Part shown: positions 1,332 through 61,097 of the stretch, one piece after another | How the letters are laid out: each line of letters opens with the position of its first letter | Position numbering within the stretch: position 1 is the first letter of the stretch | NCBI GenBank assembly: GCA_023898605.1 | Contig: CP060230.1 | Coordinates: forward strand, 530,444 to 594,443 | Length of the DNA: 64,000 nucleotides | Reading direction: 5' to 3' | Origin: Candidatus Nomurabacteria bacterium | GTDB taxonomy: Bacteria; Patescibacteriota; Minisyncoccia; Phycocordibacterales; UBA9973 | Made by a program: the position numbers and the translations under genes | The notes under the pieces: model-generated | The model's database searches: none | What the model was told of the DNA's origin: nothing | What the model saw: only the letters and a program-made list of their open reading frames with translations

Positions 1332-1466
1332 TGAGAATCATATCTTGGAACCCCGAACAATCTCTCACAAGTTCGAGATTTTACGGGGCGAGAAGTGGTC
1401 ACTATTTTATTCGCAGCTCAATAAAGTGTTAAAATATTTTTATGTTGAGAATCATATCTTGGAACC
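1332..1466 (-). mobile_element. Small GC-hairpin insertion (copy A) with 21-bp direct target duplication at the 5' end of xth
   Basis: TGAGAATCATATCTTGGAACC occurs at 1332-1352 and again at 1446-1466. The 93-bp insert between them carries TTCTCGCCCCGTA on the minus strand, an inner hairpin and TTGTTCGGGG. The module architecture matches copies at 17297-17400 and 60916-61019. Confidence 0.55.
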
Positions 1467-2278
1467 TAAACGGTATAAGGGCTGTACACAAAAAGGGCTT
1501 ATTTCTACCTCTAATAGAAAAATATGACCCAGACATAATATGTCTACAAGAAACAAAGTCAGAAAAAGATCAGATAGATATAGATTTGCCTTCTTATGAA
1601 GAGTTTTGGAATAGTGCAGAAAAACGCGGTTATAGCGGTACTGCTATATTTGTAAAAAAATCTACAAAACTCCCAAAAACCAAAAAAGTTTTGTTCGACA
1701 TACCAGAAAAAATTGAGAAGAAGTACAAATCACTCAAGGACACATACGGAGATCCAAATCGTGAAGGAAGAGTTATTGCTCTAGAAACAGAAAAGTTTTT
1801 TTTAGTAGATGTATATACTCCAAACGCAAAAGACGATCTTTCGCGCGTCTCTCTCCGACACAACAAGTGGGACCCAGCTTTTCTGGAATATGTAAAAAGT
1901 CTCGCAAATCCTTCGACTGGCTCAGGACAGGGAAAGCCAGTTATATTTTGTGGAGACTTGAATGTTGCTCATACTGAGATAGATCTTGCTCGCCCAAAGC
2001 AAAATGTTGGAAAGAAAGGTTATACAAACGAAGAACGAGAAGGTATAGACAATATAATAGATAGCGGTTTTGTCGACGCGTTTAGAATTTTTGAAAAAAG
2101 TGGTGGACACTATACTTGGTGGAGCCACTTTGCAAAAGCACGCGAGAGAAACGTCGGCTGGAGAATAGACTACTTTTTTGTTTCGAAAAACCTTGTGAGT
2201 AAGGTCAAAGACTGCAAGCACCTTACCGACTATATGGGCTCAGACCATTGCCCGATCATGATAGACATCATGATTTAG
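1442..2278 (+). CDS. xth: Exodeoxyribonuclease III (ExoIII/APE1 family AP endonuclease)
   Basis: The N-terminus MLRIISWNLNGIRA...CLQETK and the C-terminal SDHCPI are typical of the Xth family. The gene has 278 aa. Confidence 0.9.
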   Translation: MLRIISWNLNGIRAVHKKGLFLPLIEKYDPDIICLQETKSEKDQIDIDLPSYEEFWNSAEKRGYSGTAIFVKKSTKLPKTKKVLFDIPEKIEKKYKSLKDTYGDPNREGRVIALETEKFFLVDVYTPNAKDDLSRVSLRHNKWDPAFLEYVKSLANPSTGSGQGKPVIFCGDLNVAHTEIDLARPKQNVGKKGYTNEEREGIDNIIDSGFVDAFRIFEKSGGHYTWWSHFAKARERNVGWRIDYFFVSKNLVSKVKDCKHLTDYMGSDHCPIMIDIMI

Positions 2279-3442: not shown

Positions 3443-4024
3443 TTAACTTAGGTCAAACTTTTTCTTCCAATACTCCTCGTTGTCTATTTTTTCAGCTAAA
3501 ATATAATTTACATTATATCCGAAACCAAACTTATTTTTTGATAAAGATATAAACTCTTCTGCATCATAAGGATATATCCATATACTATTTTGAAACTTTT
3601 GAAAACCAAATTTTTTTAAATTAGTTCTAAACAAATCTCTTTTTGATCTGTTATTTTCGTAAACATCAAAAGAAACCAGTCTCCACTTTTTGTCCCATTT
3701 TTTACTGGTATTTTTATTTGGGAAAATCCCCAGTCTTTCTTTTCCACTTTTTGTTATAATAACTTTTATCTTTTCGCCACTATTTATTTTTTGTAAATAA
3801 CCTTTTTGAATGAGTGAATCAAAAACTTTATTATAACTATTCTTTTTTTGAGGAGTTATATCACCGACTCCTATTTTTTGTAGTATAGATTTTTGAGAAA
3901 AAATCGAGTCTTTTTGGTTTGCGTATAAAATTATTGGGTTTTCATATACAAAGTTTAATACTTTTAAAATATTTTTTCCTAACCTTACTTTTTCAAGTTT
4001 CTTTTTTTCTTTTATCTTTTTCAC
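3443..4024 (-). CDS. PaaX-family-like transcriptional regulator (N-terminal wHTH; C-terminal W-D-K-K-W-R-L-V-S-F-D motif)
   Basis: WDKKWRLVSFDVYENNRSKRDLFRTNLKKFGFQKFQNSIWIYP matches the PaaX signature WDGxWRLVxFxIPE..R..R..L...L..LGF..LQ.SVWI.P. The N-terminus looks like a winged helix. Confidence 0.6.
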   Translation of the reverse strand: MKKIKEKKKLEKVRLGKNILKVLNFVYENPIILYANQKDSIFSQKSILQKIGVGDITPQKKNSYNKVFDSLIQKGYLQKINSGEKIKVIITKSGKERLGIFPNKNTSKKWDKKWRLVSFDVYENNRSKRDLFRTNLKKFGFQKFQNSIWIYPYDAEEFISLSKNKFGFGYNVNYILAEKIDNEEYWKKKFDLS

Positions 4025-9367: not shown

Positions 9368-9973
9368 ATGGAAAAATTATTTAATGAAAACAAAATGAGA
9401 GAAATTAAATACTCTTCAATAGAAAAAGAACCAAAGTGGTTTGTACAGGGTTCTTATGTTTTAGATAAAATTTTTAACAAAAATACAGCTAGTGATATTG
9501 ATATTTTTATAAAAAAAGGAGATAAAGAGCCCGTATTAGATGCAGGTCTTAAAAAACATATTGTAGAAATGCCTGAAGATGCTTATTTCCCACCAGTATT
9601 TGGATCCTATAATACAGATAAATATATTATGACTGAAAATGGGATATTTTTCCCAGATGGTTTTCCTCAAAAACCAGAAGAATTAATCTTTTTGTTAGAC
9701 GAGAGAGTTTTAGATATTGTTGATGTTTTAAGAGGTTTTAAGATACGAGATAAATATGATATTAGGATCAGTGAAAACCTTGACAATACTTGGACAAAAA
9801 CACTTGTAAGAGATCTTGATAGTTCAAAAATAGATAAAGGTCTTTTTGACGGCCTTGAAGATTTTATAGAATATGTTGAGTTTGTAATTGATGAAAATAT
9901 TTCTAAAGAAAATATAATTTTTGTGAAAAATGAAATAGAAAAAAGAGTCGGAAAAGATTTTTTTAAGAAATAA
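9368..9973 (+). CDS. Hypothetical protein with a minimal nucleotidyltransferase-like motif (GS-x16-DIDIF)
   Basis: QGSYVLDKIFNKNTASDIDIFI fits a Pol-beta-type NTase hG[GS]...DhD pattern only loosely. Confidence 0.35.
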   Translation: MEKLFNENKMREIKYSSIEKEPKWFVQGSYVLDKIFNKNTASDIDIFIKKGDKEPVLDAGLKKHIVEMPEDAYFPPVFGSYNTDKYIMTENGIFFPDGFPQKPEELIFLLDERVLDIVDVLRGFKIRDKYDIRISENLDNTWTKTLVRDLDSSKIDKGLFDGLEDFIEYVEFVIDENISKENIIFVKNEIEKRVGKDFFKK

Positions 9974-9991
9974 TTTTTAACTAACAAAAAG

Positions 9992-10166
9992 CTGTTTTAC
10001 TTGCCCAATATAGAAATTTCTTTGTCGGGGCACTGGGATTCCCCTTCGGGCCGGGGTTTTTCCATCGAATTTTCGATATGATAAAACCCTTCGAATCCCA
10101 GGCGTAAAACAAGCAGTTGTTTTACTTGCCCAATATAGAAATTTCTTTGTCGGGGCACTGGGATTC
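9992..10166. repeat. 49-bp direct repeat: tRNA-Pro 3' end plus downstream flank duplicated 125 bp away (att-like)
   Basis: TGTTTTACTTGCCCAATATAGAAATTTCTTTGTCGGGGCACTGGGATTC occurs at 9993-10041 and 10118-10166. The second copy continues into the tRNA-Pro T-arm and body; the first diverges. Confidence 0.6.
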
Positions 10167-14261: not shown

Positions 14262-14528
14262 TTAAGACAAAATATTTTTAAAGTAATCTTTTAGTCTTCT
14301 TTTAAACATTCTCCTGCCCGTGCTAGTTTTTAGATATTTTTCTCTTCTTTTTGCGTCACTTTCAAGAATACAGGCCTCATAATATATGATTTTCCACGGC
14401 ATATATCTTTTGGTTGAAATATTTTGTCCAGCGTTATGTTCTGCAACTCTATCTTTTAAGTTTTTTGTATAACCAAAATACAACTCATTAGAATGTTTTT
14501 TGCTTTGCAAGCAATAAACATAGAACAT
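14262..14528 (-). CDS. GIY-YIG nuclease-domain protein (UPF0213-like)
   Basis: The MFYVYCLQS...LYFGYTKNL..R..EHN pattern matches GIY-YIG. Confidence 0.7.
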   Translation of the reverse strand: MFYVYCLQSKKHSNELYFGYTKNLKDRVAEHNAGQNISTKRYMPWKIIYYEACILESDAKRREKYLKTSTGRRMFKRRLKDYFKNILS

Positions 14529-16714: not shown

Positions 16715-17296
16715 TGACTTTGCTTTTGTGATTATGTCGTCGATGAGTCCGTATTTTTTTGCTTCGTCAGCCTCCATATAGTTGTCTCTATCGGTGTCTT
16801 TTTCTACTTTGTCTATTTTTTGGCCTGTGTTTTTAGAAATTATTTCGTTTAGAACTTTTTTCCATTTGAGTATCTCTCTTGCTTGGATTTCTACATCTGA
16901 AGCTTGTCCTTGTGTGCCACCAAGTGGTTGGTGGATCATGATTCTAGAGTTTGGAAGAGCAAATCTTTTGCCTTTTGCTCCGCCAGAAAGTAGAACTGCA
17001 CCCATAGAAGCCGCCATACCTACACATATAGTAGATACATCTGGTTTTATGTATTGCATTGTGTCGTATATGGCCATACCAGCTGTTACTGAACCTCCTG
17101 GTGAGTTGATATATAGCTGTATGTCTTTCTTTGGATCTTCGTGAGCTAGAAATATAAGTTGTGCGATTACAAGGTTAGAAGTGTAATCGTTTACTTCATC
17201 GTTTAGAAAAACGATTCTTTCCTTGAGTAGGCGAGAGTATATGTCGTAAGCTCTTTCTCCAAATTGTGATTTTTCTAGTACGGTAGGTATCAACAT
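16712..17296 (-). CDS. clpP: ATP-dependent Clp protease proteolytic subunit
   Basis: Catalytic-triad context ([12 protein letters not shown]) in a 194-aa ORF. Confidence 0.9.
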
Positions 17297-17400
17297 AAGA
17301 TAAAAATTGATTAAGTTTATAAAAGTCTTTATTTGTTAAATCAGCACTTCTCGCCCCGTACTAAAAATGAAGCAACGAGCGCTTTTTAGTATTGGGGGGA
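17297..17400 (+). mobile_element. GC-hairpin element copy B (degenerate; no clean flanking duplication)
   Basis: Sits in the clpP-tig intergenic region. A ~52-nt AT-rich segment is followed by CTTCTCGCCCCGTA, an inner hairpin (ctaaaaa...tttttag) and TATTGGGGGG. Confidence 0.4.
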
Positions 17401-17460
17401 CTGTTGAGATTAACATATGTTTTTACTAATTAGTTTTGTATTTTCGAATAATAACAATTT

Positions 17461-18564
17461 TTATTCCTTTCCACCAGCTTCTCCTTCTAGGATTTTTATA
17501 ACTTCTTCGTTTCTAGATGTTTCTTCTACGTAGTTTCTGACCCTTATTTTGTCAGCTCCAGGATACATACCCATAAGAGCGTCTACTTCTTTGTCTATTT
17601 TTGCATCATCTATTTTTATTTTTTCCTCTTTTGCAATTTCTGAGAAAACCATTTGTAGTTCAACTCTTTTCTTTGCGCTTTCTTTCATTTCTTCGCGGAG
17701 TGCTTCTGGTGTTTTGTTTATTTGTTTTAGATAATCTTCTGTTTTCATGCCAGAACCTTTGATTCTTGCATCTAGTTCAAACATCATGATATCTATTTCG
17801 TTTTCTATCAATATTTCTGGAAGAGATACTTTTGATTTTTCTCTTATTTCATCAAGTATTTTCATTCTCCTTTCGTTTTTTTGAGCAGCCTTCTTTTCTT
17901 CTTCTAGATTTTCTTTGATTTTTTTCTTTAGATCATCTATAGATTCGAAGTTTCCAACACTTTTTGCGAAGTCATCGTTCAATTCTGGTATATCTTCTGG
18001 TTTTATGTCATGAGAGTGTGGATGTGAGTGGTCGTGTTCGTCGTTTCCATGTTCTCTTGCGTGTGCGTTTTGTTCTGCTTTCATGTTTTGAAGTTCTTTT
18101 ATAACATTCTCAACATCTTCGTCTTTTACTTGAGAAGGTGCTTCTTCTTTTACACCACTCGCAATTTTTTTGTAATCCGGAAGAGATATTTCTGGCATAA
18201 GAAAAGTAACTATTTTGAATTCAACAGGTGAACCGCTCGCTACTTTTGTAAGAGATATTTCTGGTTGTCCGATAGGGGATAGGTTATTTTCTGTTATTGT
18301 TTCTATATATCTATCTAGTATGAGATCTTTTGCAGTTTCTTCTATTAGTTTCAGATCACCTACTTGGTTTTTGACCATATCAAGAGGCGCGTTTCCTTTT
18401 CTGAAACCTTTGATCTCTATATTTTCAGCCAGTTTTTTGAGACTTTTTTCTTTTTCTGTTTCTATAAGCTCTACTGGTATTTCTCCCAAAATCTCTATTT
18501 TGCTGTCTTTTTTCTCTCCTAGTTTTATTTTTATTTTATCCATAACACAGCACACTTTATACAA
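17461..18564 (-). CDS. tig: Trigger factor (short form)
   Basis: The N-terminal GFRKGNAP motif and gene order next to clpP fit tig. The likely start is Met8 (MDKIKIK). Only 367 aa, so the PPIase region appears reduced. Confidence 0.65.
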   Translation of the reverse strand: MYKVCCVMDKIKIKLGEKKDSKIEILGEIPVELIETEKEKSLKKLAENIEIKGFRKGNAPLDMVKNQVGDLKLIEETAKDLILDRYIETITENNLSPIGQPEISLTKVASGSPVEFKIVTFLMPEISLPDYKKIASGVKEEAPSQVKDEDVENVIKELQNMKAEQNAHAREHGNDEHDHSHPHSHDIKPEDIPELNDDFAKSVGNFESIDDLKKKIKENLEEEKKAAQKNERRMKILDEIREKSKVSLPEILIENEIDIMMFELDARIKGSGMKTEDYLKQINKTPEALREEMKESAKKRVELQMVFSEIAKEEKIKIDDAKIDKEVDALMGMYPGADKIRVRNYVEETSRNEEVIKILEGEAGGKE

Positions 18565-22058: not shown

Positions 22059-24140
22059 ATGATAAAAAGTTTTAGCAAAATAATTCTTATATTCTCAATA
22101 CTATTTTTGTTTGGATTTAGTAAGTCTTTTGCTGGGACAGGGGACAATGTTACCGGTTGGGCGTGGTCTTCCAACATAGGTTGGATATCTTTCAACTGTG
22201 TTACAGATAGCTCTTGTGATGCCGGGACACTTTTTGATGATCCTGGAGCAGATGGGACACTCGAAGGTCCTGGCGGAGACACTATTCCAGGAACAGAAGA
22301 CACAGGAGGAACAGATGCTGGAACAGGATTTATAGAAAATTCTTGGAGGATGCTTGTTAATAAAACTATAGAGTCTTTCGATACTGCTTTTGTTTCACCT
22401 ACATATAAAATATACAAAAAACTCTCTTATCTTATAAAAGATACTCTTTCTCCAGAGACTATATACGCAGATGATCTAGATGGGATTTCTCCTCCTGGAG
22501 TTGATTATGGAGTAAACATAGATCCTCTGACAGGAAGTATGTCTGGTTATGCATGGAGTGAAAATATAGGTTGGATTTCTTTCAACGAATCTTCAGGATG
22601 CCCCGGAGAAGGTATTTGTAGTCCTAGTATGGACCTTGGAACTGGCGCACTAAAAGGTTGGGCAAAGGCAATAAACGGAAACACATCTGACGACGGTTGG
22701 GATGGGTGGATCTCTCTTTCTTGTAAGAACCACGATTTGGTTATTTGTTTTCCAAGCTACAAGGTTAAGTTTGATCTTGGAACAGGTGCAACAAGCGGTA
22801 CAGATAGATGGGCATGGGGAAGCGATGTTATAGGATGGGTATATTTTGGAGATGTTGTTGTTGATCTACCTCAGCCAACACTTTCTCTCGTTGCTACTCC
22901 AAATATTGTTTCTGCTGGCGGATCTACTTCACTTTCTTGGACATCTACAAGTACTACTTCTTGTAGCGCATCTTCTTCTGACGCACTTTGGACCGGTACA
23001 AAACCTACAAACTCTATAGCACCGGAGTCAGTTATACCTTCTGGCGATATCGTCCTTACAGATGAGTTTGGAGATATACACTATTACACAAAATATGTGA
23101 TGGATTGCGATACAACAACAGGTGAACCGATTTCTTCAGAAGAATATGTAGAAGTTATATACGAAGATGGTGTTTCAGCTGGAAGTTTGGTTCTACAAGC
23201 ATCTCCAACAATTGCTTCTGGTGACAACGGATACAAAGTAAAACTTACTTGGTATTCTCCTACAGCTACAACACTCACATCTTGTGTTGCAAACTCTTAC
23301 TCTATAGCAACTGGAACAGACGTCCCTCTAACTGGAACTGGCTGGACAGGACCACAAACATCACTAACAGCTACAAACTCTTACACCGCAAGTACTCCGG
23401 GTGAAACTATATTTGTTCCAGAAAATCCGACAAAATACTCTATAACTTGTGAAGATGTTCTTGCTAGCGAAAGCGTAACTGCAACAACCGTTGTACCTAG
23501 AGTTCTAGCGGTGCCGAGTGTAGATATATTTGCATCGAGTCCGTCTGGAACACCTGGATCATACAACGTTGATCTTTCTTGGGAACCACTAAACGTGACT
23601 TCATGTACTGCTTCTAACGAAGATGGAATATCTGGTTGGTCTGGACCAAAGTCTGCGCTACCTGGTCTCAATACTCAAAGTGACGTTAGTCTTTCTGACG
23701 GAGGGACAACTTATACCATTACTTGCTCTGGTGCTTATGGTTCTGCGAGTGATTCTGTAACAGTGTTCCCGCCTTCTGATCCTGGAGATGACGGAGATAC
23801 TTCATGTACAGATTGTTTCCCAGCTGATGGACCTGCTGTTGCGCTAACATATGCTGATTTTATTCCTGGAGTATTGGTTCCTGGATCTGTGACACTTATC
23901 TGGAAAACACAAGACGTTGTTTCTTGCGAAGCTTCTTCTACTGATACTCTCTGGACTGGGCCAAAAGCTGCAACTCCAGATGGAATATATACAGAGGTAG
24001 GGGTGCTCTATACATCACCGTTTGAAGATTACACAATTACATGTATAGGCGACGACGACTCAACAGTTTCTGACACGCTTAAGCTCAACGATTCTTCACC
24101 GAAAAACCCAATTGTAAGACCGACTTGGATAGAGTTTTAA
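22059..24140 (+). CDS. Large secreted repeat protein (G(W/Y)AWS.NIGWISFN repeats, then four ~90-aa LSW..SC.AS..W.GPK modules)
   Basis: Signal peptide. GWAWSSNIGWISFNC, GYAWSENIGWISFNE and WAWGSDVIGWVYFGD. Repeated LSWTSTS..SCSAS / LTWYSP..SCVAN / LSWEPLNVTSCTAS / LIWKTQDVVSCEAS modules. Confidence 0.65.
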   Translation: MIKSFSKIILIFSILFLFGFSKSFAGTGDNVTGWAWSSNIGWISFNCVTDSSCDAGTLFDDPGADGTLEGPGGDTIPGTEDTGGTDAGTGFIENSWRMLVNKTIESFDTAFVSPTYKIYKKLSYLIKDTLSPETIYADDLDGISPPGVDYGVNIDPLTGSMSGYAWSENIGWISFNESSGCPGEGICSPSMDLGTGALKGWAKAINGNTSDDGWDGWISLSCKNHDLVICFPSYKVKFDLGTGATSGTDRWAWGSDVIGWVYFGDVVVDLPQPTLSLVATPNIVSAGGSTSLSWTSTSTTSCSASSSDALWTGTKPTNSIAPESVIPSGDIVLTDEFGDIHYYTKYVMDCDTTTGEPISSEEYVEVIYEDGVSAGSLVLQASPTIASGDNGYKVKLTWYSPTATTLTSCVANSYSIATGTDVPLTGTGWTGPQTSLTATNSYTASTPGETIFVPENPTKYSITCEDVLASESVTATTVVPRVLAVPSVDIFASSPSGTPGSYNVDLSWEPLNVTSCTASNEDGISGWSGPKSALPGLNTQSDVSLSDGGTTYTITCSGAYGSASDSVTVFPPSDPGDDGDTSCTDCFPADGPAVALTYADFIPGVLVPGSVTLIWKTQDVVSCEASSTDTLWTGPKAATPDGIYTEVGVLYTSPFEDYTITCIGDDDSTVSDTLKLNDSSPKNPIVRPTWIEF

Positions 24141-28703: not shown

Positions 28704-30455
28704 ATGCGCATAAAAGATGCAGACCTAAAAAGATTCATACTAGATTCAGGACTTCTTTCTGAGAAAGATCTAAAAGCCGCCGAGGGAATCGCAAAAGAAA
28801 AAGAAATAACTCTGAATGAAGCACTTCTAACTCAAGGCAAAATCTCCGAAAATAATCTAAGAAGGATGCAAGCATATGTTTTGGGTATACCTTTTGTTTC
28901 TCTTGTTGGTCAAAAGGTTGATTTCAAGATTCTTTCTATGATTCCGGAGCCGATTGCTAGAAAGAACAACATAATCGCCTACAAAAAATCTGGCGAAGAA
29001 CTAGAAGTGGCTATGCTAGACACAGATGAGCTTCCAGTTATCGACTTTGTTAGGAAAAAGACTGGCCTAAAGATTGTTCCCAGGCTTAGTGATGAAGCAT
29101 CTATCAAGGACGCACTTTTGCAATACAAAAAATCTCTAAAGGCAGAGTTCGACGACATCATCCAAAAAGAAGCGATGTCACTAAAAGCAATCAAAGAAGA
29201 CGCTGGTGACGATGTTTCAGAAAAAGATTTGAAAGAAATGGCGGAAGATCTACCTATCGTCAAAATCGTCGACACGCTCATTTCTCACGCGATTTTGCAA
29301 GGAGCGTCTGACATACACATAGAACCAGGAGAATACGAGCTCGTTGTTAGATATAGAATAGACGGTATCCTTCACGATGCAATGAAACTTCCAAAAGAGT
29401 CTGCTGCAGGTATAACTGCAAGAATAAAAGTTCTTTCGAACTTGAAACTAGACGAGAAGAGACTTCCGCAAGACGGAAGATTCAAGATAAACACTGATGA
29501 CCAAAAAGTTTCTTTCCGTGTATCTACACTTCCTACTTACTTTGGAGAGAAAACCGTTATGCGTCTTTTGAGAGAGTCTAGTAAGGGATTTACTCTAGAG
29601 GGTCTTGGATTCCATGGACTTGGTCTTGAGAGAATACACGAAGGTATGAAGCAACACACAGGGATGCTTCTTGCTGCCGGTCCAACTGGTTCTGGTAAAA
29701 CCACAACACTATATACAATGCTCGACATGCTAAACACTCCCGACGTAAACATTTCGACAGTAGAAGACCCTATCGAGTATCAGATGCCGAGAATCAACCA
29801 AACTCAAGTAAAGTCTGAAATTGGTATGACATTTGCAAACGGACTTCGTGCGCTTTTGAGACAAGACCCAGACATAATCATGGTGGGTGAGATTCGAGAT
29901 GGAGAAACAGCTTCTTTGGGTATCAACGCATCTTTGACAGGACACCTTGTGCTTTCAACTATCCACACAAACTCTGCTGCTGGTGCCGTGCCGAGACTTA
30001 TAGACATGGGAGCGGAGTCTTTTTTGATCGTTTCTACTCTAAAAACTGTTATTGCTCAGAGACTTGTTAGAAGACTTTGCCAAGACAAAGAAAAATATAT
30101 ACCTTCAAAAGAAGAACTTGCTGCAGTTTCGAAAATAGCAAATCTAGATAGGATTCTAGAGGTTCTAAAAGAAGAAAAGATAGTTGGTGAAAAAGATGAT
30201 TGGACAACTATACCGTTTTATAGAGCCAAAGAGTCTGGCGAGTGCCCAGATGGATATAGTGGCCGAGTCGGAATACACGAAATACTTAAAATAAGCCCAG
30301 CTATAAAAGAAATAATAATAAAAGACGGGTCACCTGACGAGATAGAAGCCAAGGCAAAAGAAGAGGGCATGATAACAATGTTAGAAGACGGTGTAGTCAA
30401 AGCTGCTCAAGGTATAACTTCTCTAGAAGAAGTTCTAAGAGTTGTTTCAGAATAA
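28704..30455 (+). CDS. pilB: Type IV pilus assembly ATPase PilB/GspE family
   Basis: Walker A GPTGSGKTTT and the GspE N-terminal domain. Confidence 0.9.
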   Translation: MRIKDADLKRFILDSGLLSEKDLKAAEGIAKEKEITLNEALLTQGKISENNLRRMQAYVLGIPFVSLVGQKVDFKILSMIPEPIARKNNIIAYKKSGEELEVAMLDTDELPVIDFVRKKTGLKIVPRLSDEASIKDALLQYKKSLKAEFDDIIQKEAMSLKAIKEDAGDDVSEKDLKEMAEDLPIVKIVDTLISHAILQGASDIHIEPGEYELVVRYRIDGILHDAMKLPKESAAGITARIKVLSNLKLDEKRLPQDGRFKINTDDQKVSFRVSTLPTYFGEKTVMRLLRESSKGFTLEGLGFHGLGLERIHEGMKQHTGMLLAAGPTGSGKTTTLYTMLDMLNTPDVNISTVEDPIEYQMPRINQTQVKSEIGMTFANGLRALLRQDPDIIMVGEIRDGETASLGINASLTGHLVLSTIHTNSAAGAVPRLIDMGAESFLIVSTLKTVIAQRLVRRLCQDKEKYIPSKEELAAVSKIANLDRILEVLKEEKIVGEKDDWTTIPFYRAKESGECPDGYSGRVGIHEILKISPAIKEIIIKDGSPDEIEAKAKEEGMITMLEDGVVKAAQGITSLEEVLRVVSE

Positions 30456-31677
30456 AAATATGAATTTTAATTACGAAGGAATCACAAAAGATAAAGGAAG
30501 AGTAAAAGGGACAATAGAGTCTCCAGATAAGTTCAATGCCGCAAAAGATCTCCGAGAGAAGGGAATAACAGTGCTTTCTCTTGAACCAAAATCTGAAAAG
30601 AAGGGGTCTTCTATCCTAGACCTTCTTCCTTTTGGAAAAATAAAACTAGCTGAAAAAATACTTTTCACCAGAAACCTTTCTGGGATGATTTCTGCCGGAC
30701 TTTCTCTGTCTAGAGCACTTCAGGTTTTAGAAAAGCAAACAGAAAATAAAAAAATGAGAGAAGTTTTGAGATTTCTTATAGATGAAATAGATAAGGGAGG
30801 TACACTTTCTGACGGTATGGCAAAAAATCCAAAAGTTTTCTCAGCGATTTTTGTCTCTATGGTTAGAGCAGGTGAAGAGTCTGGAGCACTTTCCAATGCA
30901 CTAAAAGAAGTTGGACTAAACCTTCAGAAGGCTTATGACCTAAACAAAAAAGTAAAAGGTGCGATGACGTATCCATCTATTATTTTGGGGGCAATAGTTT
31001 TGGTTGGAGTTTTGATGATGATATTTGTTGTACCCTCTATTACAAAAACTTTCGTCGAGCTTGGAATTGATCTTCCCACATCAACACAGTTCATCATATT
31101 TATGAGTGAACTCTTCCAAAACTACGCGATATTTGTGTTTATGGGATTGGGTCTAGTTGTTTTTGGAGTTATGTATTTTGTAAAAAGAACACCAAAACTT
31201 AAAAAGATTTTTCATAAAATCATATTGAAGATACCTGTCATAGGTCTTATCGCAAGACAGGTCAATTCCGCCAGAACAACCAGAACCATGTCCTCTCTTC
31301 TTTCTGCTGGTGTTTCTGTTACAAAAGCTTTGGAGATTACAAAAGAGGTTCTTCAAAATACAGAGTTTAAAAACGTTATAGACGAATCAATTGCTTCTGT
31401 TCAGAAGGGTGTAGCTTTGTCAGAAGTTTTCAAAAAGTATCCAAAACTTTATCCCGTCATGGTTAGTGAAATGATGGAAGTTGGAGAAGAAACAGGAAAC
31501 TTTGCTTCTATGCTTATGGACATAGCTGTTTTCTACGAAGAAGAAGTAGATGCCAAGACAAAAAACCTTTCAACAATTATCGAACCTGTTCTTATGATAT
31601 TTATTGGTGGAGCTGTGGGGTTCTTTGCACTATCTATGATAACTCCTATGTATTCCATTTTGGACACAATCGGTTAA
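30442..31677 (+). CDS. pilC: Type IV pilus assembly platform protein PilC/GspF family
   Basis: Two GspF repeats and multi-TM topology. The likely start is MNFNYEG. Confidence 0.85.
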   Translation: MFQNKNMNFNYEGITKDKGRVKGTIESPDKFNAAKDLREKGITVLSLEPKSEKKGSSILDLLPFGKIKLAEKILFTRNLSGMISAGLSLSRALQVLEKQTENKKMREVLRFLIDEIDKGGTLSDGMAKNPKVFSAIFVSMVRAGEESGALSNALKEVGLNLQKAYDLNKKVKGAMTYPSIILGAIVLVGVLMMIFVVPSITKTFVELGIDLPTSTQFIIFMSELFQNYAIFVFMGLGLVVFGVMYFVKRTPKLKKIFHKIILKIPVIGLIARQVNSARTTRTMSSLLSAGVSVTKALEITKEVLQNTEFKNVIDESIASVQKGVALSEVFKKYPKLYPVMVSEMMEVGEETGNFASMLMDIAVFYEEEVDAKTKNLSTIIEPVLMIFIGGAVGFFALSMITPMYSILDTIG

Positions 31678-31687
31678 AATTAGAATA

Positions 31688-33499
31688 ATGGTTTTTAACC
31701 AAAAAAATAAAAAGTTTTATAGCAAAGGAACGACTTTGATTGAAACGCTTATTGCCGTCGCTTTTTTTGTTGGTGTTTCGACTGCAATCTACGGTGTGTA
31801 TGGAAAAATACTAGAACTTACTCGCGTTGCTAGAATGCGAGATATTATCGCGACTACAGCAAATGAATATATAGAAATAATCAGAAATCTTCCTTATGCC
31901 GATGTTGGTGTAGAGGGTGGAGTTCCAGACGGGGTCATACCCTACCAGCAAAATATAACCAGAAATGGTTACACTATGAGAATACAGACTTTTATAGAAA
32001 ATGTTGATCAAGATTTTGACGGAACTGTTGGTGGTACTCCAAACGACGACATGCCAGCTGACGCAAAACTTGTCGAGATAAGGGTTCAGTGTATAGAATG
32101 TGATACTTATTACAATACGATGGCTTTTACAGCACTTATTTCTCCTAAAAATATGGAGTTTGATACAAACAGTGGAGCGCTTTACGTGTATGTCATAGAT
32201 GCCAATGGTGACCCTCTCCCAAATATAGATTTAGATATAGATAATGCTTCAGAGTCTATAAGTATAAACGATCAAACTGGGGCCGATGGTGTGTACAAGG
32301 TTATAGGTGCACCATCTGGAACAAGAAAATATAGAATACAGGCCACGAAATCCGGGTATACTTTCGACAGTACGTATCTAAAGTCAAACCTTGGCGGCTC
32401 TACTCCGGTTCTTCCACACGCCTCTGTAATTGATCAAGAAATTACATCTATAACAATGGTTGTAGACAGGGTCAGTAACATACAGTTTTCATCTGTTGAT
32501 GAAGACTGCAACGCTATTGGTGCTTTTGACTTTCAACTTACGGGTGAAAAACTTTTGGGTACTAATCCGACATATTTGAAATATAATCAATCTCTCGTTA
32601 CAAACGCCTCTGGGATAAAAAATCTTTCAAATGTTGAGTGGGACACATATTCTGTTACTTCTATAGACTCTGTATATGACCTTATAGGATCAAACCCTCT
32701 TCTCGAGTTTTCTGTCTCACCAAACTCTACTCAAAGTATGCAATTGGTAGTAGCACCAAAAGATCAGCCTACACTACTAGTTAGTGTAAAAGATGGAAGT
32801 ACTGGCCTTGCACTTTCTGACGTAACGGTAGATATAGACGACGGTGCGGGTTATACGGACAGTGCTATAACTGGTAAGGGATCAAAGAGTCAGACAGACT
32901 GGTCTGGTTCTTCTGGTGTGGCTACCTCTGTTCCAGATGGAGTAGATTACTTTTCTTCAGACAGCAACTTGGAACTTAGAAGTCCAGAAGGTGATATGAA
33001 ACTAAGATATCAAGGTGGAGTGTATCTATCTTCTGGTTATCTTATTTCTTCTACTTATGATACTGGTTCCGCAAGTAATTTTAGTGAAATAACATGGAAC
33101 CCATATACTCAGCCAGCTGAAGCTGGGGCGGCAAGTAGTGTTAGATTCCAGATAGCTACAAACAATGACTATACAACTTGGAATTTCTTGGGACCAGATG
33201 GAACAAACGCCACTTACTATACATATGGAGATCAAGCGATCTCTTCCGTACACAACGGGGATAGATATTTGAGATATAAAGTTTATCTATCTACTGACAA
33301 TACTGCTTATACGCCGACAGTTTCTGATATAGGTTTTACATATACAACTAACTGTACACCTCCTGGACAAGTAGTCTTCCAAAGTATTCCAACTGGAAAT
33401 TACACGATAACTTCATCCAAGACTGACTATAATACTGACATATTATCTTTTACAGTTGGTTCGACGTGGCAACAAGCAGAAGTAACACTTACAGAATAA
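31688..33499 (+). CDS. Giant prepilin-type protein (N-terminal GTTLIETLIAVAF methylation motif)
   Basis: Class III signal-like N-terminus, then a ~570-aa extracellular region. Confidence 0.6.
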   Translation: MVFNQKNKKFYSKGTTLIETLIAVAFFVGVSTAIYGVYGKILELTRVARMRDIIATTANEYIEIIRNLPYADVGVEGGVPDGVIPYQQNITRNGYTMRIQTFIENVDQDFDGTVGGTPNDDMPADAKLVEIRVQCIECDTYYNTMAFTALISPKNMEFDTNSGALYVYVIDANGDPLPNIDLDIDNASESISINDQTGADGVYKVIGAPSGTRKYRIQATKSGYTFDSTYLKSNLGGSTPVLPHASVIDQEITSITMVVDRVSNIQFSSVDEDCNAIGAFDFQLTGEKLLGTNPTYLKYNQSLVTNASGIKNLSNVEWDTYSVTSIDSVYDLIGSNPLLEFSVSPNSTQSMQLVVAPKDQPTLLVSVKDGSTGLALSDVTVDIDDGAGYTDSAITGKGSKSQTDWSGSSGVATSVPDGVDYFSSDSNLELRSPEGDMKLRYQGGVYLSSGYLISSTYDTGSASNFSEITWNPYTQPAEAGAASSVRFQIATNNDYTTWNFLGPDGTNATYYTYGDQAISSVHNGDRYLRYKVYLSTDNTAYTPTVSDIGFTYTTNCTPPGQVVFQSIPTGNYTITSSKTDYNTDILSFTVGSTWQQAEVTLTE

Positions 33500-33500
33500 T

Positions 33501-34115
33501 ATGAAAAGAGTTCACAATAAAAATTTACAAAAAGGTTTTACGTTGGCAGAAACAATTGTGACCTTGGCGGTTGTAGGTCTTATTGTTGCCAGTGTTGCGG
33601 CTTTCCAAGCAAACGTTTTCTCTTTCACTAGAACATTTAATGCTGGGCTTAGTGCGGCAGATCATGCAAGAAGGGTACTCAAGCCTATTTCCAACGAACT
33701 TCGCGCAGCAGAAACTTCTGAAGTTGGTAATTATGCTATTTCAGAAGGAACAGCCACTTCGGTTACTTTCTTCTCAGATATAGATTCTGATGATGTTGCA
33801 GAAATGGTCAGATATTATCTGGATGGTACTGATATAAAAAAAGAAGTTACTGAACCAGCTGAAAACCCATATGATTATAACAGTGGAACAACAGAGACAA
33901 TTACTATAATAAGAGGTGTGACAAATAGTGATATATTTTATTATTATGATACAGATTATGACGGAACAACTAGCGCGCTTACTTTTCCTATAACTGTTAC
34001 AGATGCGAGACTTATAAAAATAAGCTTAACAATAGACGAAGATCCTCAGAAAGATCCACCACCATTATCAATAGTTACAGAGGTTTCTTTTAGAAACTTG
34101 AAAGATAATTATTAA
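33501..34115 (+). CDS. Prepilin-type (pseudopilin) protein (GFTLAETIVTLAVVGLIV)
   Basis: Canonical G-F-T-L-x-E N-terminus. Confidence 0.6.
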   Translation: MKRVHNKNLQKGFTLAETIVTLAVVGLIVASVAAFQANVFSFTRTFNAGLSAADHARRVLKPISNELRAAETSEVGNYAISEGTATSVTFFSDIDSDDVAEMVRYYLDGTDIKKEVTEPAENPYDYNSGTTETITIIRGVTNSDIFYYYDTDYDGTTSALTFPITVTDARLIKISLTIDEDPQKDPPPLSIVTEVSFRNLKDNY

Positions 34116-34120
34116 TCTTT

Positions 34121-35602
34121 ATGAAATTGATTAACTCAAAAAATAAAAAAGGATCTCTTCTCTTAGGCGTTGTATTTTTTTCTGCTATTTCTATATCGCT
34201 TGTCACTGCTTTTATAGGGTGGTCAGTTTCTCTTTCTAGGGTTTCAAATACTGTTCTAGACAAAGAACAAGCTTTTCAAATAGCCGACGCAGGAATCGAT
34301 TATTATAGATGGCACTTAGCCCATGACCCAGATGATTTTCAAGATGGTACAGGTACATCTGGACCATATGTTCATGTTTTTTATAACAGAAACGATATAG
34401 CAATAGGCGAGTTTAGTTTAGATATAACTGCTCCCTCAGAAGGGTCAAATCTTGTAACAATAACTTCTACTGGTTCTATATATGATAATCCAGATGCAAC
34501 AAGATCAATTCAGGCAAAACTCGCTATACCTTCTTTTGCGCAGTGGGCTGTTGTTTCCAATGATAATTTGAAGTTTGATGAGGGGACAGAAGTTTATGGT
34601 CCGATTCATTCAAATCAGGGAGTTAGAATGGATGGTATTGCATATAACATAGTAACTAGTTCCGTTTCTGATTATGATGACCCAGACCATGATGGTGATA
34701 ATGAATTCGCTGTACACACTCATGTAAAACCACCACCAGAAACAGGTACATATGATGATGCCCTAGGTTCTGTTGCTGCAGAGACACCCCCGGCAACTAT
34801 GGCAGACAGAACAGATGTTTTTTCTGCTGGTAGAGAATTCCCTACAACAACCGCAGATTTTGTTGGCATGAGTGGAGATTTTTCAGAAATGAAAACAGCT
34901 TCTCAGACGAACGGCTCATATCTATCTTCTAGTGGTGCATATGGATATAGAATACAGTTAAAAACTGACGGAACGTATGATTTATATAGAGTTGCAAAAC
35001 TGGTACAGCAAAGCGGGTCTTGTATTGATCCAGGAAACCAAGATGGTTGGGATTTGTGGAGCATAAAAACAACTGGAGGTGAAACGTTTATTGATAATTA
35101 TGACGTGCCAGCTGATGGAATAATCTTTGTTGAAGATGATGTTTGGGTTAGCGGGCAAGTAGATAGATATAGAGTAACTATAGTCGCGGCAACTTTTCCA
35201 GACGTGCCATCAGATAGAAAAAATATAATTATAAATAACGATCTTACTTATACAAATTATGACGGACAAGACGCAATAGGTTTGATAGCTCAAGACAATA
35301 TAAACATAGGACTTAGATCAGCTGACCACCTAAGGATAGACGGAGCTCTTATTGCACAAAATGGAAGAATAGGTAGATATTATTATTCTGATCAGTGTAC
35401 TTCGTATTATGCTCGTGACGAGCTTACACTTTTTGGTGCTATTGCCACATATGGAGCTCATGAGTTTTATTATGATGACGGATCTGGTTATGCCGCCATA
35501 TCTATAAATTACGACTCAAACCTTCTTTATGGACCGCCTCCATATTTTCCTCTTGCAGATGAGGCCTATTCCACAGTTTCTTGGAAAGAAGTCGCAAATT
35601 AG
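34121..35602 (+). CDS. Pilus-associated protein with N-terminal hydrophobic anchor (PilX/minor pilin-like)
   Basis: N-terminal TM and operon context only. Confidence 0.4.
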   Translation: MKLINSKNKKGSLLLGVVFFSAISISLVTAFIGWSVSLSRVSNTVLDKEQAFQIADAGIDYYRWHLAHDPDDFQDGTGTSGPYVHVFYNRNDIAIGEFSLDITAPSEGSNLVTITSTGSIYDNPDATRSIQAKLAIPSFAQWAVVSNDNLKFDEGTEVYGPIHSNQGVRMDGIAYNIVTSSVSDYDDPDHDGDNEFAVHTHVKPPPETGTYDDALGSVAAETPPATMADRTDVFSAGREFPTTTADFVGMSGDFSEMKTASQTNGSYLSSSGAYGYRIQLKTDGTYDLYRVAKLVQQSGSCIDPGNQDGWDLWSIKTTGGETFIDNYDVPADGIIFVEDDVWVSGQVDRYRVTIVAATFPDVPSDRKNIIINNDLTYTNYDGQDAIGLIAQDNINIGLRSADHLRIDGALIAQNGRIGRYYYSDQCTSYYARDELTLFGAIATYGAHEFYYDDGSGYAAISINYDSNLLYGPPPYFPLADEAYSTVSWKEVAN

Positions 35603-35628
35603 TGTCTCGTTTTGTGTATAATTAGTAC

Positions 35629-36381
35629 ATGAAAACAGAAAAAATCCTCGTAGTTGCCAACTGGAAAGCAAATCCTGAGTCAAAAAAAGAAGCTGAAAAA
35701 TTAGCCAAAGGTCTATCAAAAAACTGGAAATCTAGAGATTCTAAAAACAAAGATTATGTTATTTGTCCTCCAGCTATATTTCTAGATGTTGTGGCAAAAA
35801 ATCTCCCTAGAGGTGCTGCTTTGGGTGTACAAGACCTATATTTCGACAAGTCTGGTGCGCACACTGCAATGATTACACCGCCAATGGCAAAAAGTATAGG
35901 TGCTAATTATAGTATTGTTGGTCACTCAGAAATGAGGGCCTCTATCGATACACATGAATCTATAAACAAAAAAGTTAATTTTATAATCTCATCTTCTATG
36001 ACGCCTATTTTATGTATAGGAGAAAATGATCGAGATGAAAACGGATTTTATTTGAAAGAAGTTTCTGACCAAATAACTAGTGCGCTATATGGTATTTCGA
36101 AGAAAAGTCTTTCTTCTCTCATCATCGCATATGAGCCAGTTTGGGCTATAGGTAGTGGCGCAAAAAGAGAGGCAACACCGAAAGAGTGCCAAGAAATGGT
36201 TATCTTTATAAGAAAAATAATTAGAGATCTTTATGATGCTGATTCTTCAAAAAAAGTAAAAATAATATATGGTGGTTCAGTAAATGAAGAAAACTCCGCA
36301 TCTTACATAGAAGATGGTATGGCAGAAGGATTTTTAGTTGGAAGAGTTAGTCTTGATCCAAAAAGATTTTTGAGTTTGTAA
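35629..36381 (+). CDS. tpiA: Triosephosphate isomerase
   Basis: ANWKAN, VGHSE.R and YEPVWAIGSG motifs. Confidence 0.85.
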   Translation: MKTEKILVVANWKANPESKKEAEKLAKGLSKNWKSRDSKNKDYVICPPAIFLDVVAKNLPRGAALGVQDLYFDKSGAHTAMITPPMAKSIGANYSIVGHSEMRASIDTHESINKKVNFIISSSMTPILCIGENDRDENGFYLKEVSDQITSALYGISKKSLSSLIIAYEPVWAIGSGAKREATPKECQEMVIFIRKIIRDLYDADSSKKVKIIYGGSVNEENSASYIEDGMAEGFLVGRVSLDPKRFLSL

Positions 36382-36384
36382 AAT

Positions 36385-37943: not shown

Positions 37944-38010
37944 TTTATTATAGTACAAATATGTTTTTTTGATAATTTTGCCAATTTTGAGAAATGATAT
38001 AATTGTACTT

Positions 38011-58785: not shown

Positions 58786-60938
58786 AAAGAGATTATCCAC
58801 TAGAAAAAGTAAGGAACTTTGGGATTATTGCCCACATCGACGCCGGAAAAACTACTACTTCCGAGCGTGTTTTGTACTACACCGGTGTTTCTCACAAGAT
58901 TGGTGAGGTTCACGAAGGTGAAGCTACAATGGACTGGATGGAACAAGAAAGAGAGAGAGGTATTACTATTACCTCTGCTGCTACTACTTGTTTCTGGACA
59001 CCTACATACGTAGGCGACAAAGAAGACAAAAAAAGCAAATTTAGGTTCAACATAATCGACACACCTGGACACATCGACTTCACAGTTGAGGTGAAAAGAT
59101 CTATGAGAGTTTTGGACGGAGCAGTTGTTGTGTTTGACGGTGTTGCTGGTGTAGAGCCACAATCAGAAACAAACTGGAGATATGCCGACGAAGCCAACGT
59201 GCCAAGAGTTTGTTTTATAAACAAATTAGACAGAACAGGTGCTTCTTTTGAGAAGTCATATCAATCTATTATAGATAGACTTTCAAAGAGTGCAGTTAGA
59301 ATGCAGCTTCCTATCGGACTAGAAGATCAGCACGAAGGTGCAGTAGATCTTCTTACAAGAAAAAGCTACAGATTCTCAGGAAAAATGGGAGACGAAATCA
59401 TAGAAGGTGATGTCCCAGAAAACATGAAAGAAGAAGTTGAGAAATACCGAAATGAACTTGTAGAGTCTATCGTTTCAAACGATGAGACTATGATGAACGA
59501 CTATCTAGAAGGCAAAGAGCCAGAACTAGCTGTTCTAAAAGCAACACTTAGAAAGGCAGTTATCGCAAACAAGATCTTTCCTGTTTATTGCGGTAGTGCC
59601 CTAAAGAACAAAGGTGTTCAACTAGTTCTAGACGCAGTTGTTGACTTTCTTCCTTCTCCTCTAGATGTTCCTCCTGTAAAAGGAATTGATCCTGAAACAG
59701 AAGAGGTAGTAGAGAGAAAGACAGAAGACGGAGAACCTCTTTCTGCACTTGCTTTCAAAGTTGCTACAGATCCATTTGTAGGACAACTTATATTCTTCAG
59801 AGTTTACTCTGGAACCCTTTCCGCTGGTAGCTATGTCTACAACCCTAGAACTGGTTCAAAAGAAAGAATCGGTAGAATCTTGCGTATGCACGCAAACCAA
59901 AGAGAAGAAGTAAAGAAAGTTTACGCTGGAGAAATCGCAGCAGCTGTTGGACTAAAAGATACTATTACATCTGACACACTCTGTGACGAAGAACACCCAA
60001 TCGAACTAGATAGAATCGTGTTCCCAGAACCAGTTATCTCTCTTAGAATCGAACCAAAGACAAAATCTGATCAAGAGAAACTCGGTATGTCACTTTCTAG
60101 ACTTGCTCAAGAAGACCCAACATTTAGAGTTTCAACTGACTCTGAAACAAACGAAACAATCATCGCTGGTATGGGAGAACTTCACCTAGACATAATCGTA
60201 GACAGACTAAAGAGAGAGTTCTCAGTAGAAACAGTTGTCGGTAAACCTCAAGTTGCTTATAGAGAAACAATTACAGGTGACGCTGATGTAGAAGGAAAAT
60301 ACATCAAACAATCTGGAGGTAGAGGTAACTACGGTCACGTAAAGATCAAAGTAAAACCACTAGATCAGAAGATGACAAAGGAAGATATAGAAAAACTACC
60401 GAAGAACGTAAAGAGAGAAGACCACTTCGAATTCATCAACAACATCAAGGGAGGTGTTATTCCACAAGAATACATTCCTGCTTGTGAAAAAGGATTTAGA
60501 GAAGGTCTAGACAGAGGAATACTTGCAGGATTCAAGATGGTAGATGTTTCTGTTGATCTATATGACGGTAGTTATCACGAAGTTGACTCAAACGAAATGG
60601 CGTTCAAGATCGCTGCTTCTATGGCTATTCAAGAAGCTTGTCAAAAAGCTAGACCAGTTATCCTAGAGCCTATGATGAAGGTAGAAGTTGTAACTCCTGA
60701 CCAGTTCATGGGAGACGTTTCTGGAAACCTTTCTTCTAAGCGTGGTCTTATCGAAGGTATGGAAGATAGAGGTATGAACAAAGTTGTAAAAGCTGTTGTT
60801 CCTCTTTCTGAAATGTTCGGATTCATGACAACACTTAGATCTATGACTGAAGGTAGAGCATCATTCAACATGGAATTCCTAAGATATGATATTGTTCCAC
60901 AAAACGTTGCGGATGAAATAATCAAATCACGTAAATAA
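58782..60938 (+). CDS. fusA: Elongation factor G
   Basis: G domain [10 protein letters not shown] and DTPGHIDF. 718 aa. Confidence 0.9.
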
Positions 60939-61041
60939 TTGAAATTAGAAAAGGCTAGATAATCAATTCTCGCCCCGTACAAAGAACCGCATGAATTCAT
61001 GCGGTTCTTTTGTTCTGGGGTTCCACAAAACGTTGCGGATG
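60894..61041 (+). mobile_element. GC-hairpin element copy C with 22-bp direct duplication of the fusA 3' end
   Basis: GTTCCACAAAACGTTGCGGATG occurs at 60894-60915 and 61020-61041. The 104-bp insert carries TTCTCGCCCCGTAC (60967-60980), a perfect inner hairpin (60981-61010) and TGTTCTGGGG. The insert also supplies the current fusA stop. Confidence 0.55.
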
Positions 61042-61097
61042 CCTGTTCGCCTTGGGTGGGAAATCATAAAATCTAGAAAATAATATAAAAATAAATC

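Follow-up and report, generated by a model that had tools for sequence, protein, structure and literature searches.

Phages and other integrative elements can enter the end of a gene and supply a substitute for it, as do phage 21 and e14 in icd and the integrases acting at tRNA genes. In fungal mitochondria, mobile endonuclease open reading frames (mORFs) with a foreign C-terminus have been described in atp6 of Allomyces and in atp6, atp9, cox2 and nad3 of Glomus (PMC3630166). The inserted and native ends show 64-81% DNA identity and 91-100% protein identity, and this pattern was read as horizontal transfer (PMC3630166). Here we analyse a small hairpin element, copy B, situated between clpP and tig in a 64-kb stretch of contig CP060230.1 of a Candidatus Nomurabacteria bacterium. 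The whole stretch is called the window below, and it contains two related elements, copies A and C. Copy B probably belongs to a family of small mobile cassettes of about 115-130 nt, devoid of open reading frames (ORFs), in bacteria of the candidate phyla radiation (CPR, Patescibacteria). Our best reading of the family is a non-autonomous, horizontally spreading "gene-end replacement cassette" that is moved in trans.

Anatomy of the copies in the window

Copy B (17297-17400) has the same layout as copy A (about 1332-1466, minus strand) and copy C (60894-61041). The window has exactly three occurrences of the 13-mer TTCTCGCCCCGTA, at 1382-1395 (-), 17347-17360 (+) and 60966-60979 (+). With a covariance model derived from 12 members of the family, the three copies reach 46-48 bits (E about 1e-10), against 12.6 bits for the next best segment of the 64 kb, a difference well outside chance; no further diverged copies were found in the window with this model. 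Copy B matches the model over its full length (48 bits, E = 2e-10). Folded as DNA, it has an energy of -10.5 kcal/mol (z = -2.8 relative to shuffled sequences). A perfect direct repeat of 21-22 nt flanks the arm and the hairpin of copies A and C, and the left repeat stops exactly 50 nt before the motif. The positions of all parts are listed in Table 1.

The clpP duplication of copy B is located exactly where copies A and C predict it. In five of the eight retrieved contigs of the window species the relic of the clpP start reads ATGTTAATCCCAACAGTC (MLIPTV). Five synonymous changes, each in a third codon position, separate it from the new start ATGTTGATACCTACCGTA, so that both encode MLIPTV. In these contigs the relic equals the new start at all 12 first and second codon positions, a match reproduced by none of 2 million random 18-mers. 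A P-to-S change in the relic is present in some strains only, a visible case of present-day drift of the relic. The duplicated stretch starts 67-69 nt from the motif, depending on the manner of counting the G-run. Two relatives of the window species, L100 and L102, both lack the element, and their working clpP starts represent both versions of the sequence (ATGTTGATACCTACAGTA in L100, ATGTTAATCCCAACAGTT in L102).

Given two versions of the clpP start and a relic 44 nt past the tig stop, the old start was therefore cut off and replaced by the new one. The old start was severed after codon 6, and clpP is now served by the new start with its 50-nt upstream region. Copy B thus rewires the operon: clpP no longer adjoins tig, and the relic start, the hairpin and the new upstream region lie between them. 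The relic ATG, if used, would open a 26-codon ORF ending inside the arm. The trigger factors of the closest relatives are only 48% identical to that of the window species.

The initial annotation had correctly placed copy B in one family with copies A and C, and had rightly seen it as an interruption of a once tight tig-clpP junction, where the relic ATG lies 44 nt past the tig stop. It had also stated that copy B lacks a clean flanking duplication and may be older or degenerate. The former is wrong and the latter unsupported: positions 17399-17416 repeat the first six codons of clpP, and in most strains the duplication differs at synonymous sites only, which points to two functional clpP lineages and not to decay. 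The "~52-nt AT-rich arm" is indeed AT-rich, and its length is exactly 50 nt in copies A, B and C. It is no conserved part of a generic element, as the arms of other copies carry gene-specific replacement codons. The arm sequence of copy B is unrelated to those of copies A and C.

In copy C, an 18-nt GC-rich insert separates the second 22-nt repeat from the recoded old end of fusA. This out-of-frame insert, too, is visible drift of a relic. It begins exactly at the end of the 22-nt identical zone. The insert resembles the joined outer parts of the hairpin element, CTTCTCGCC plus TTGGGGT, at 13 of 16 positions, and may be a collapsed older copy of the element.

Table 1. Features of the window, by position (copies of the element with their genes, then the DNA-uptake and pilus genes)
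Feature	Position	Strand	Remark
Copy A at xth 5' end	1332..1466	-	family D14
Copy A, relic of xth start	1332-1352	-
Copy A, hairpin and motif	1351-1395	-
Copy A, arm	1396-1445	-
Copy A, new gene end	1446-1466	-	perfect 21-nt repeat TGAGAATCATATCTTGGAACC
xth ORF	1442-2278	+	Exo_endo_phos
clpP, intact, 194 aa	16712..17296	-	ORF with PF00574 CLP_protease; abuts arm
New clpP start, first 18 nt	17279-17296	-	ATGTTGATACCTACCGTA
Copy B, arm	17297..17346	+	50 nt, AT-rich, ends in CA; now upstream region of clpP
Copy B, conserved 5' motif	17347..17360	+	CTTCTCGCCCCGTA; invariant in 12 copies
Copy B, whole hairpin	17353..17399	+	base GCCCC/GGGG; T-rich spacer TATT; G-run 17394-17399
Copy B, inner hairpin	17361-17389	+	stem-loop CTAAAAA...TTTTTAG
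Copy B, TATTGGGGGG	17390-17399	+	3' of inner hairpin
Relic of old clpP start	17399..17416	-	ATGTTAATCTCAACAGTC here, encoding MLISTV
Original tig-clpP spacer	17417..17460	-	44 nt, tig stop to relic ATG
tig (trigger factor)	17461..18564	-	PF05697/PF05698; neighbour upstream of clpP
Copy C at fusA 3' end	60894..61083	+	family D13; fusA at 58782-60938
Copy C, first 22-nt repeat	60894-60915	+
Copy C, arm	60916-60965	+	holds working fusA end EIIKSRK*
Copy C, motif	60966-60979	+
Copy C, hairpin	to 61021	+
Copy C, second 22-nt repeat	61020-61041	+
Insert CCTGTTCGCCTTGGGTGG in copy C fusA relic	61042-61059	+	18 nt, GC-rich, out of frame
Copy C, recoded old fusA end	61060-61083	+	EIIKSRK*
PilB-like ATPase (type IV pilus)	28704-30455
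PilC-like platform protein	30442-31677
Pseudopilin	33501-34115
RecJ	37969-39648
RNase H-domain protein	39717-40442
ComEC	40442-41938

The family in CPR genomes

Pattern scans that required exact motif matches covered the GTDB species genomes, the JGI metagenomes and IMG/VR. They gave mostly single chance matches in GC-rich genomes, and besides these a consistent group of genuine members in CPR contigs of low GC content. One more member, diverged and with the motif CCTTGCCCCGTA, came from the covariance model. Ten insertion sites were found beyond the window, in Saccharibacteria, Zambryskibacteria, Nealsonbacteria, Parcubacteria and unbinned low-GC contigs. Together with the three copies of the window, the family has 13 sites, a number kept at about this level by the exact motif demanded in the collection scans. 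The scan of IMG/VR viral contigs gave one doubtful match, inside a phage ORF (L039).

Besides xth 5' (copy A), clpP 5' (copy B) and fusA 3' (copy C), the element is found at fusA 3' in Saccharibacteria (L026), at the same Val-Pro codon as copy C; at fusA 5' in Zambryskibacteria (L063/L068) and at sod 3' in the same genome; at alaS 5' in L031 and in the related species L094; at the 5' ends of tRNA-Arg genes in L017 and L079; at the 5' end of a response regulator gene in Nealsonbacteria (L023) and of a transketolase-like gene in L072; and at a non-coding site in L067. The alaS element is common to both species compared. Among close relatives the distribution is patchy.

Several rules hold across these sites. 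The arm lies on the side of the intact gene at every gene-associated site. The truncated copy of the gene end begins 0-2 nt past GGGG, nearly always with T (junction GGGG-T); an N-T junction is seen in 11 of 12 copies. In the 12 copies with the exact motif the duplicated stretch starts 67-72 nt upstream of the motif (mean 69.8, standard deviation 1.3), and in the diverged sod copy the spacing is about 62 nt. The spacing of about 70 nt is kept with coding shares of 8-46 nt and with hairpins of 31-49 nt. The 70-nt unit splits into 10 + 61 in L072, and its coding part comprises the first 45 nt in L063. Thus the "50-nt arm plus 20-nt repeat" of the window copies is a special case of a 70-nt unit.

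Two records stand apart. In L059 (4470-4680) an atypical copy beside tRNA-Gly(GCC) has a hairpin without the GGGG foot and abuts the CCA end of the intact tRNA. To its left lies an internally deleted copy of the tRNA together with its 35-nt flank (89% identity), so that in this case the non-coding flank is duplicated. In L066 (1-69) an Illumina/Nextera adapter is fused straight to the motif at the contig start, which is an assembly artefact in the public record.

Native relics and foreign gene ends

The relics occupy native operon positions. In L068 the rpsG stop is followed after 10 nt by the relic fusA ATG; in the element-free relative L107 it is followed after 17 nt by the fusA ATG. In L072 the relic ATG overlaps the stop codon of the upstream gene (ATGA). 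Therefore the inserted DNA comprises the hairpin, the untranslated arm and the replacement gene end, and the relic is the remnant of the resident gene. The mirror-image model, with the hairpin and the relic as the incoming DNA, was rejected, as the relics occupy native operon junctions.

The closest EF-G relatives of L068 (L103, L105 and L107, 85-89% identity) have no copy at fusA 5', and the closest relatives of the window species have no clpP copy. The copies are therefore gains. All strains of the window species carry copies B and C, and all retrieved ClpP and EF-G contigs are occupied. In exact-protein look-ups, the xth protein and the product of ORF 9368-9973 were not on record.

The rpsG-fusA junction contains other inserts in two of these relatives: an ORF of the Avd-like 23S_rRNA_IVP family in L105 (1058-1501) and an unrelated 159-nt insert in L103 (1341-1501). 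A truncated motif, CTTACCCCGTACGAAATCCGCCG, is located 36 nt past the fusA stop in L105 (about 3650-3720) and resembles the remnant of a copy that has decayed at the 3' end of fusA. Relic starts and ends beside the hairpins deserve a warning to annotators, as they produce spurious small ORFs and N-terminal extensions. The EF-G gene call in L068 begins inside the arm, at MILISGKYMQRD...

In all copies compared, the new and the old end are homologous up to the gene boundary and no further. Their untranslated parts show no relatedness, not even in copy A with its 21 of 21 identical coding positions. A simple target-site duplication is ruled out by the same two observations. Pooled over the copies, the new and old ends have 39.8 synonymous and 27.2 non-synonymous differences; the proportions of differing synonymous (pS) and non-synonymous (pN) sites are 0.64 and 0.11 (pN/pS 0.17, binomial p = 2e-12 against neutrality). 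In copy B, L023, L026 and the fusA 5' copy of L063 the synonymous sites are saturated (pS 0.87-1.15). Saturated synonymous sites with non-synonymous differences of at most 11% mean that the ends diverged as working genes in different lineages. Thus the new and old ends must come from different lineages, the new ends being foreign.

The identity of the new and old ends peaks at the junction. It is perfect over 5-22 nt in most copies, and past this zone the sequence is either recoded (copy C, L023) or unrelated. Such a pattern points to pairing, or to a crossover, in the first ~20 nt.

Structure of the hairpin

All copies contain one hairpin of 11-22 bp. Its foot, CCCC/GGGG, is invariant and is adjoined by a G.U or G-C pair. 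Beyond this pair there is a small asymmetric interior region, with GTA on the 5' side and a T-rich 3' side. The foot reads GCCCCGTA ... (T)GGGGT in all copies. The upper stems are unrelated in sequence (mean identity 41%) and yet always paired. Since G.U pairs are conserved, the fold is specific to the motif strand.

On the model alignment, which was itself fitted to the covariance model, 91.4% of pairing cells are paired, compared to 82.2% in column shuffles; 13 cells are changed on both sides, compared to 6.2; and the covariation score is 0.262, compared to 0.118. None of 500 shuffles reached the observed value on any of the three measures, and slid controls were lower. The initial annotation had proposed compensatory variation from three inner hairpins of unrelated sequence with preserved pairing, and a conserved outer pairing. 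Both proposals are supported, the former by 41% identity in paired stems with 13 double changes against 6.2, the latter by the invariant foot. The structured element then proposed also has further copies, at ten more CPR sites, along with the covariation.

A -10-like box directed into the hairpin occurs 2-8 nt upstream of the motif in six of 12 independent copies, against an expectation of about 1.7. Among the three window copies a sigma-70-like promoter, also directed into the hairpin, was found in the arm of copy A only (TTAACA-17-TAAAAT). A transcript starting at the motif is a lead from these boxes and not a demonstration. Several inner stems (copy C, L026, L063) resemble terminators, with a GC stem followed by a T-rich tract.

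Element classes considered and rejected

At gathering thresholds Rfam reports only four tRNAs in the window, and there is no match at E <= 10 around copy B. A rho-independent terminator needs a GC stem directly followed by a T-run. A terminator scan was negative for both strands of copies A, B and C, and in the sense direction of clpP it is CGAGAAG, not a T-run, that follows the hairpin. No ORF was found inside the element.

A miniature inverted-repeat transposable element (MITE) was rejected, as the ends are unrelated (a variable gene-derived 5' end and the GGGG foot) and there are no terminal inverted repeats. Moreover, the duplicated, homologous stretch has 8-46 nt and stops at the gene boundary, instead of being a target duplication of 2-10 bp. 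The R''/R' sites of integron attC, RYYYAAC ... GTTRRRY, are absent, the foot being GCCCCGTA ... (T)GGGGT throughout; the copies are solitary at housekeeping genes, and no integrase was found among the 40 window ORFs scanned. A palindromic IS200/IS605 element or a TnpB guide RNA does not fit one single hairpin with no consensus left of the junction and no Rfam match. A diversity-generating retroelement was rejected on the 65 mismatches between new and old ends, as A is in the new copy at 25 of them and in the old copy at 24, and all substitution types occur. A bridge RNA or a guide within the hairpin was considered as well: the similarity or complementarity of the hairpin core to the target and flanks is within the shuffled expectation in all 12 copies. 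No consensus resembling a protospacer-adjacent or target-adjacent motif (PAM or TAM) was found beside the targets; there is only the T at the first duplicated base.

Other duplications and genes in the window

Two further gene ends in the window are duplicated. The 3' end of xth, the gene that has copy A at its 5' end, is duplicated in tandem (2243-2315) with no hairpin in between: the working end DHCPIMIDIMI* (2243-2278) is followed by GG and then by a frameshifted relic, DHCPIMLDINI* (2281-2315). At tRNA-Pro(TGG) (9983-10166) a 59-nt direct repeat with 95% identity occurs 125 nt apart. One copy comprises the last 18 nt of the tRNA with the 41 nt that follow downstream, and the second copy is a relic. 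Between the repeats lie 66 nt with the palindrome ATCGAATTTTCGAT, a small GC hairpin that has a T-run, and a partial copy of the T-arm in inverted orientation. The unit is of similar size, with no CTTCTCGCCCCGTA motif, and the non-coding flank is duplicated too.

A set of DNA-uptake and pilus genes is located in the window at 28704-41938 (Table 1). A 193-aa ORF (3443-4024, minus strand) has a PaaX_M / Cas2-like domain and is not linked to the copies; a similar ORF lies next to tig in L102 (9355-9834). No CRISPR (clustered regularly interspaced short palindromic repeats) array and no other cas genes were seen. An 88-aa stand-alone GIY-YIG ORF lies beside the RNase Y gene (14262-14528, minus strand). 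It is not linked to the copies either, and is called as a gene in the contigs of some strains only (in L001, not in L002 or L004). Two large ORFs without a Pfam match contain the repeated coding motif GYAWSENIGWISF (22155-22586 and 53339-53556) and probably encode surface proteins.

Possible mechanism and alternative explanations

As we see it, the cassette has two parts. The first, of about 70 nt, comprises the replacement first or last codons of one gene together with untranslated sequence. The second is the conserved single-stranded motif CTTCTCG followed by the hairpin, whose foot, GCCCCGTA ... T-rich ... GGGG, is fixed and whose top is free provided that it is paired. The cassette sits in register within a resident housekeeping gene, which stays intact through the end brought by the cassette, and the resident end is displaced past the hairpin foot (GGGG-T) and left as a truncated relic. 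At clpP, it entered after codon 6 and parted clpP from tig; with it came a new start codon ATG, codons 1-6 and 50 nt of upstream sequence. The sequences show this outcome, a unit of about 70 nt plus the hairpin set in register ahead of the homologous resident gene end.

What the analysis has shown, and such a mechanism has to explain, are the anatomy, the arm-side rule, the 70-nt spacing, the native relics, the foreign new ends, the patchy distribution and the hairpin covariation. One possibility is that a trans-acting protein recognises the motif and the hairpin foot and sets the far end of the unit about 70 nt upstream. The gene-derived first ~20 nt of the unit would then pair with the resident gene, by break repair or annealing, and the hairpin foot would be joined at N-T. 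Resolution of the heteroduplex to the resident or the incoming sequence would account for the identical and the recoded zones. At an occupied locus, the gene body and the relic could serve as homology arms, and the cassette might spread among related strains by DNA uptake and recombination. Our confidence in these steps as a whole is moderate to low.

The presence of ComEC, the type IV pilus ATPase and platform protein, and RecJ in the window counts in favour of the mobile cassette. Several observations weigh against it. Pfam scans of 40 window ORFs revealed no transposase, integrase, reverse transcriptase or TnpB/Cas-like gene, and none of these is consistently next to the other copies either; the scans, also aimed at nucleases, gave only the PaaX_M and GIY-YIG proteins described above. 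It is hard to see how the cassette would find its target in B, L026 and L063, where about 25% of positions differ between the new and the old end. Four matches to the motif and hairpin (L036, L039, L075, L089) have no recognisable relic. No pair of empty and occupied, otherwise identical alleles was found by the exact-protein look-ups, and no insertion is recent enough to give a direct view of movement. Finally, we know of nothing that measures 70 nt.

Part of the same evidence could be produced by transformation itself with DNA of a related CPR cell, with homologous recombination in the gene body and illegitimate joining at the GC-rich hairpin foot, the hairpin being a favoured joint or a nuclease-resistant end. 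The competence genes (ComEC, type IV pilus, RecJ), the foreign new ends, the overlap of 1-3 nt (G/GG plus T) at the GGGG-T joint, and the motif-less duplications of the tRNA-Pro and xth 3' ends in the same 64 kb all agree with such a by-product. However, chance joints would yield neither a 13-nt motif identical across CPR classes, nor the constant spacing of 70 +/- 1.3 nt, nor the same fusA codon in two distant lineages, and ordinary terminator hairpins in the window have no relics; we consider this origin unlikely. It is even harder to believe that the hairpin is an ordinary regulatory structure of the host, a terminator or insulator, beside which the duplications arose in place and later diverged. 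The terminator-like inner stems of C, L026 and L063 would suit it, and the alaS element common to L031 and L094 is compatible with vertical descent. But a neutral relic could not keep saturated synonymous sites with at most 11% non-synonymous differences, the untranslated parts are unrelated even next to 21 of 21 identical coding positions, none of the three window copies is called by the terminator scan, and the copies are patchy among close relatives. Duplication in place is thus already disfavoured and must be regarded as highly improbable.

Two alternatives keep the element mobile. The hairpin, the motif and the gene-derived 70 nt could together form an attP-like site of a miniature integrative element, used by a tyrosine-type integrase in trans; the 70 nt would then be the distance from an arm-type binding site (the motif) to the crossover. 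In lambda-type attP sites the range of distances between the core and the arm sites includes about 70 bp, so the spacing fits, and so do the attL/attR-like architecture with 5-22 nt of identity at the junction followed by divergence, and the N-T junction in 11 of 12 copies. At least ten unrelated targets without a shared core, a double-stranded circle of about 120 bp that is physically unlikely, and the lack of an integrase gene in the window or near the other copies all argue against it, and the variable hairpin with compensatory changes and G.U pairs points to a single-stranded form. Neither the integrative element nor this interpretation of the 70 nt seems at all probable. The recoded ends could also reflect RNA-guided homing. 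A promoter at the end of the arm would drive a transcript in which the hairpin is the handle and the guide is formed by the first ~20 nt of the relic. Unoccupied alleles would be cut ~20 nt from the junction by a trans-acting nuclease and, on repair, receive the cassette from an occupied allele, while occupied alleles would be shielded by their recoded end. The -10-like boxes directed into the hairpin (six of 12 copies against about 1.7, with TTAACA-17-TAAAAT in copy A), the strand-specific fold with G.U pairs, the perfect zone of 16-22 nt followed by recoded sequence in C and L023, the persistence of relics, and the copy C insert that starts exactly past the 22-nt zone are consistent with this scheme, under which one protein could serve many targets. 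However, there is no conserved PAM- or TAM-like motif beside the targets, self-targeting would be expected of A, C, L017 and L079, whose 20-nt zone is identical, scans of 40 window ORFs gave no candidate nuclease, there is no match to an Rfam family, and promoter-like boxes are a weak signal in AT-rich DNA. Both the guide transcript and the cutting of unoccupied alleles are, in our opinion, very unlikely. The same low weight is given to a speculative extension of this scheme, a natural ORF-less "home-and-rescue" gene drive, in which the cassette with its own promoter would form a guide RNA from the hairpin handle and the relic-derived sequence, and direct a nuclease supplied in trans to unoccupied essential genes. 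Repair would copy the cassette, the recoded 70-nt end would rescue the gene and protect occupied alleles, and one protein could drive many cassettes into many essential genes across the CPR; this too strikes us as very doubtful.

If the gene-end replacement cassette is real, CPR bacteria carry very small selfish DNA inside essential conserved genes (EF-G, ClpP, AlaRS, tRNAs), made harmless by its own replacement end. The cassette would then make DNA exchange between distant lineages of the CPR visible, and would point to an enzyme that reads the hairpin foot and measures 70 nt.

Comparison with known systems

A full-text literature search, with the motif string included, found no published description of such an element. 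In being small, ORF-less, dispersed, hairpin-forming and presumably moved in trans, the cassette is similar to MITEs, to repetitive extragenic palindromes and bacterial interspersed mosaic elements (REP/BIME), and to palindromes derived from IS200/IS605. In contrast to them, it has no terminal inverted repeats, no target duplication of 2-10 bp and no fixed target tetranucleotide; it has a single hairpin at one end, and it carries target-specific coding sequence.

Integron attC sites share with the cassette a hairpin recognised by its shape: the foot is conserved, a region inside is unpaired, and the top varies with compensatory changes. In both, the point of recombination is at the 3' foot, between G and T. 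However, the cassette has no RYYYAAC/GTTRRRY sites, no integrase and no array, and attC recombination does not create a duplicated gene end.

Phages integrated at gene ends resemble the cassette in the flanking direct repeats, in an element-borne end that differs at synonymous sites, and in the gene that remains functional. They are kilobases long, encode an integrase and use one specific attachment site each, whereas here a single hairpin family with no gene of its own is used at ten or more targets.

Of the architectures described so far, that of the mORFs comes nearest. As in these, the gene core is joined in frame to a foreign end, followed by a mobile insert and by the displaced native end as a relic. 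The mORF inserts, however, are about 0.4-1 kb long, encode their own LAGLIDADG or GIY-YIG homing endonuclease and affect 3' ends only. The cassette is bacterial, measures about 100 nt, lacks an ORF, consists of a 45-60 nt hairpin insert with a fixed replacement length of 70 nt, and is found at 5' and 3' ends as well as at tRNA genes. If our reading is true, it would be the ORF-less bacterial counterpart of the endonuclease-borne gene-end swaps in fungal mitochondria.

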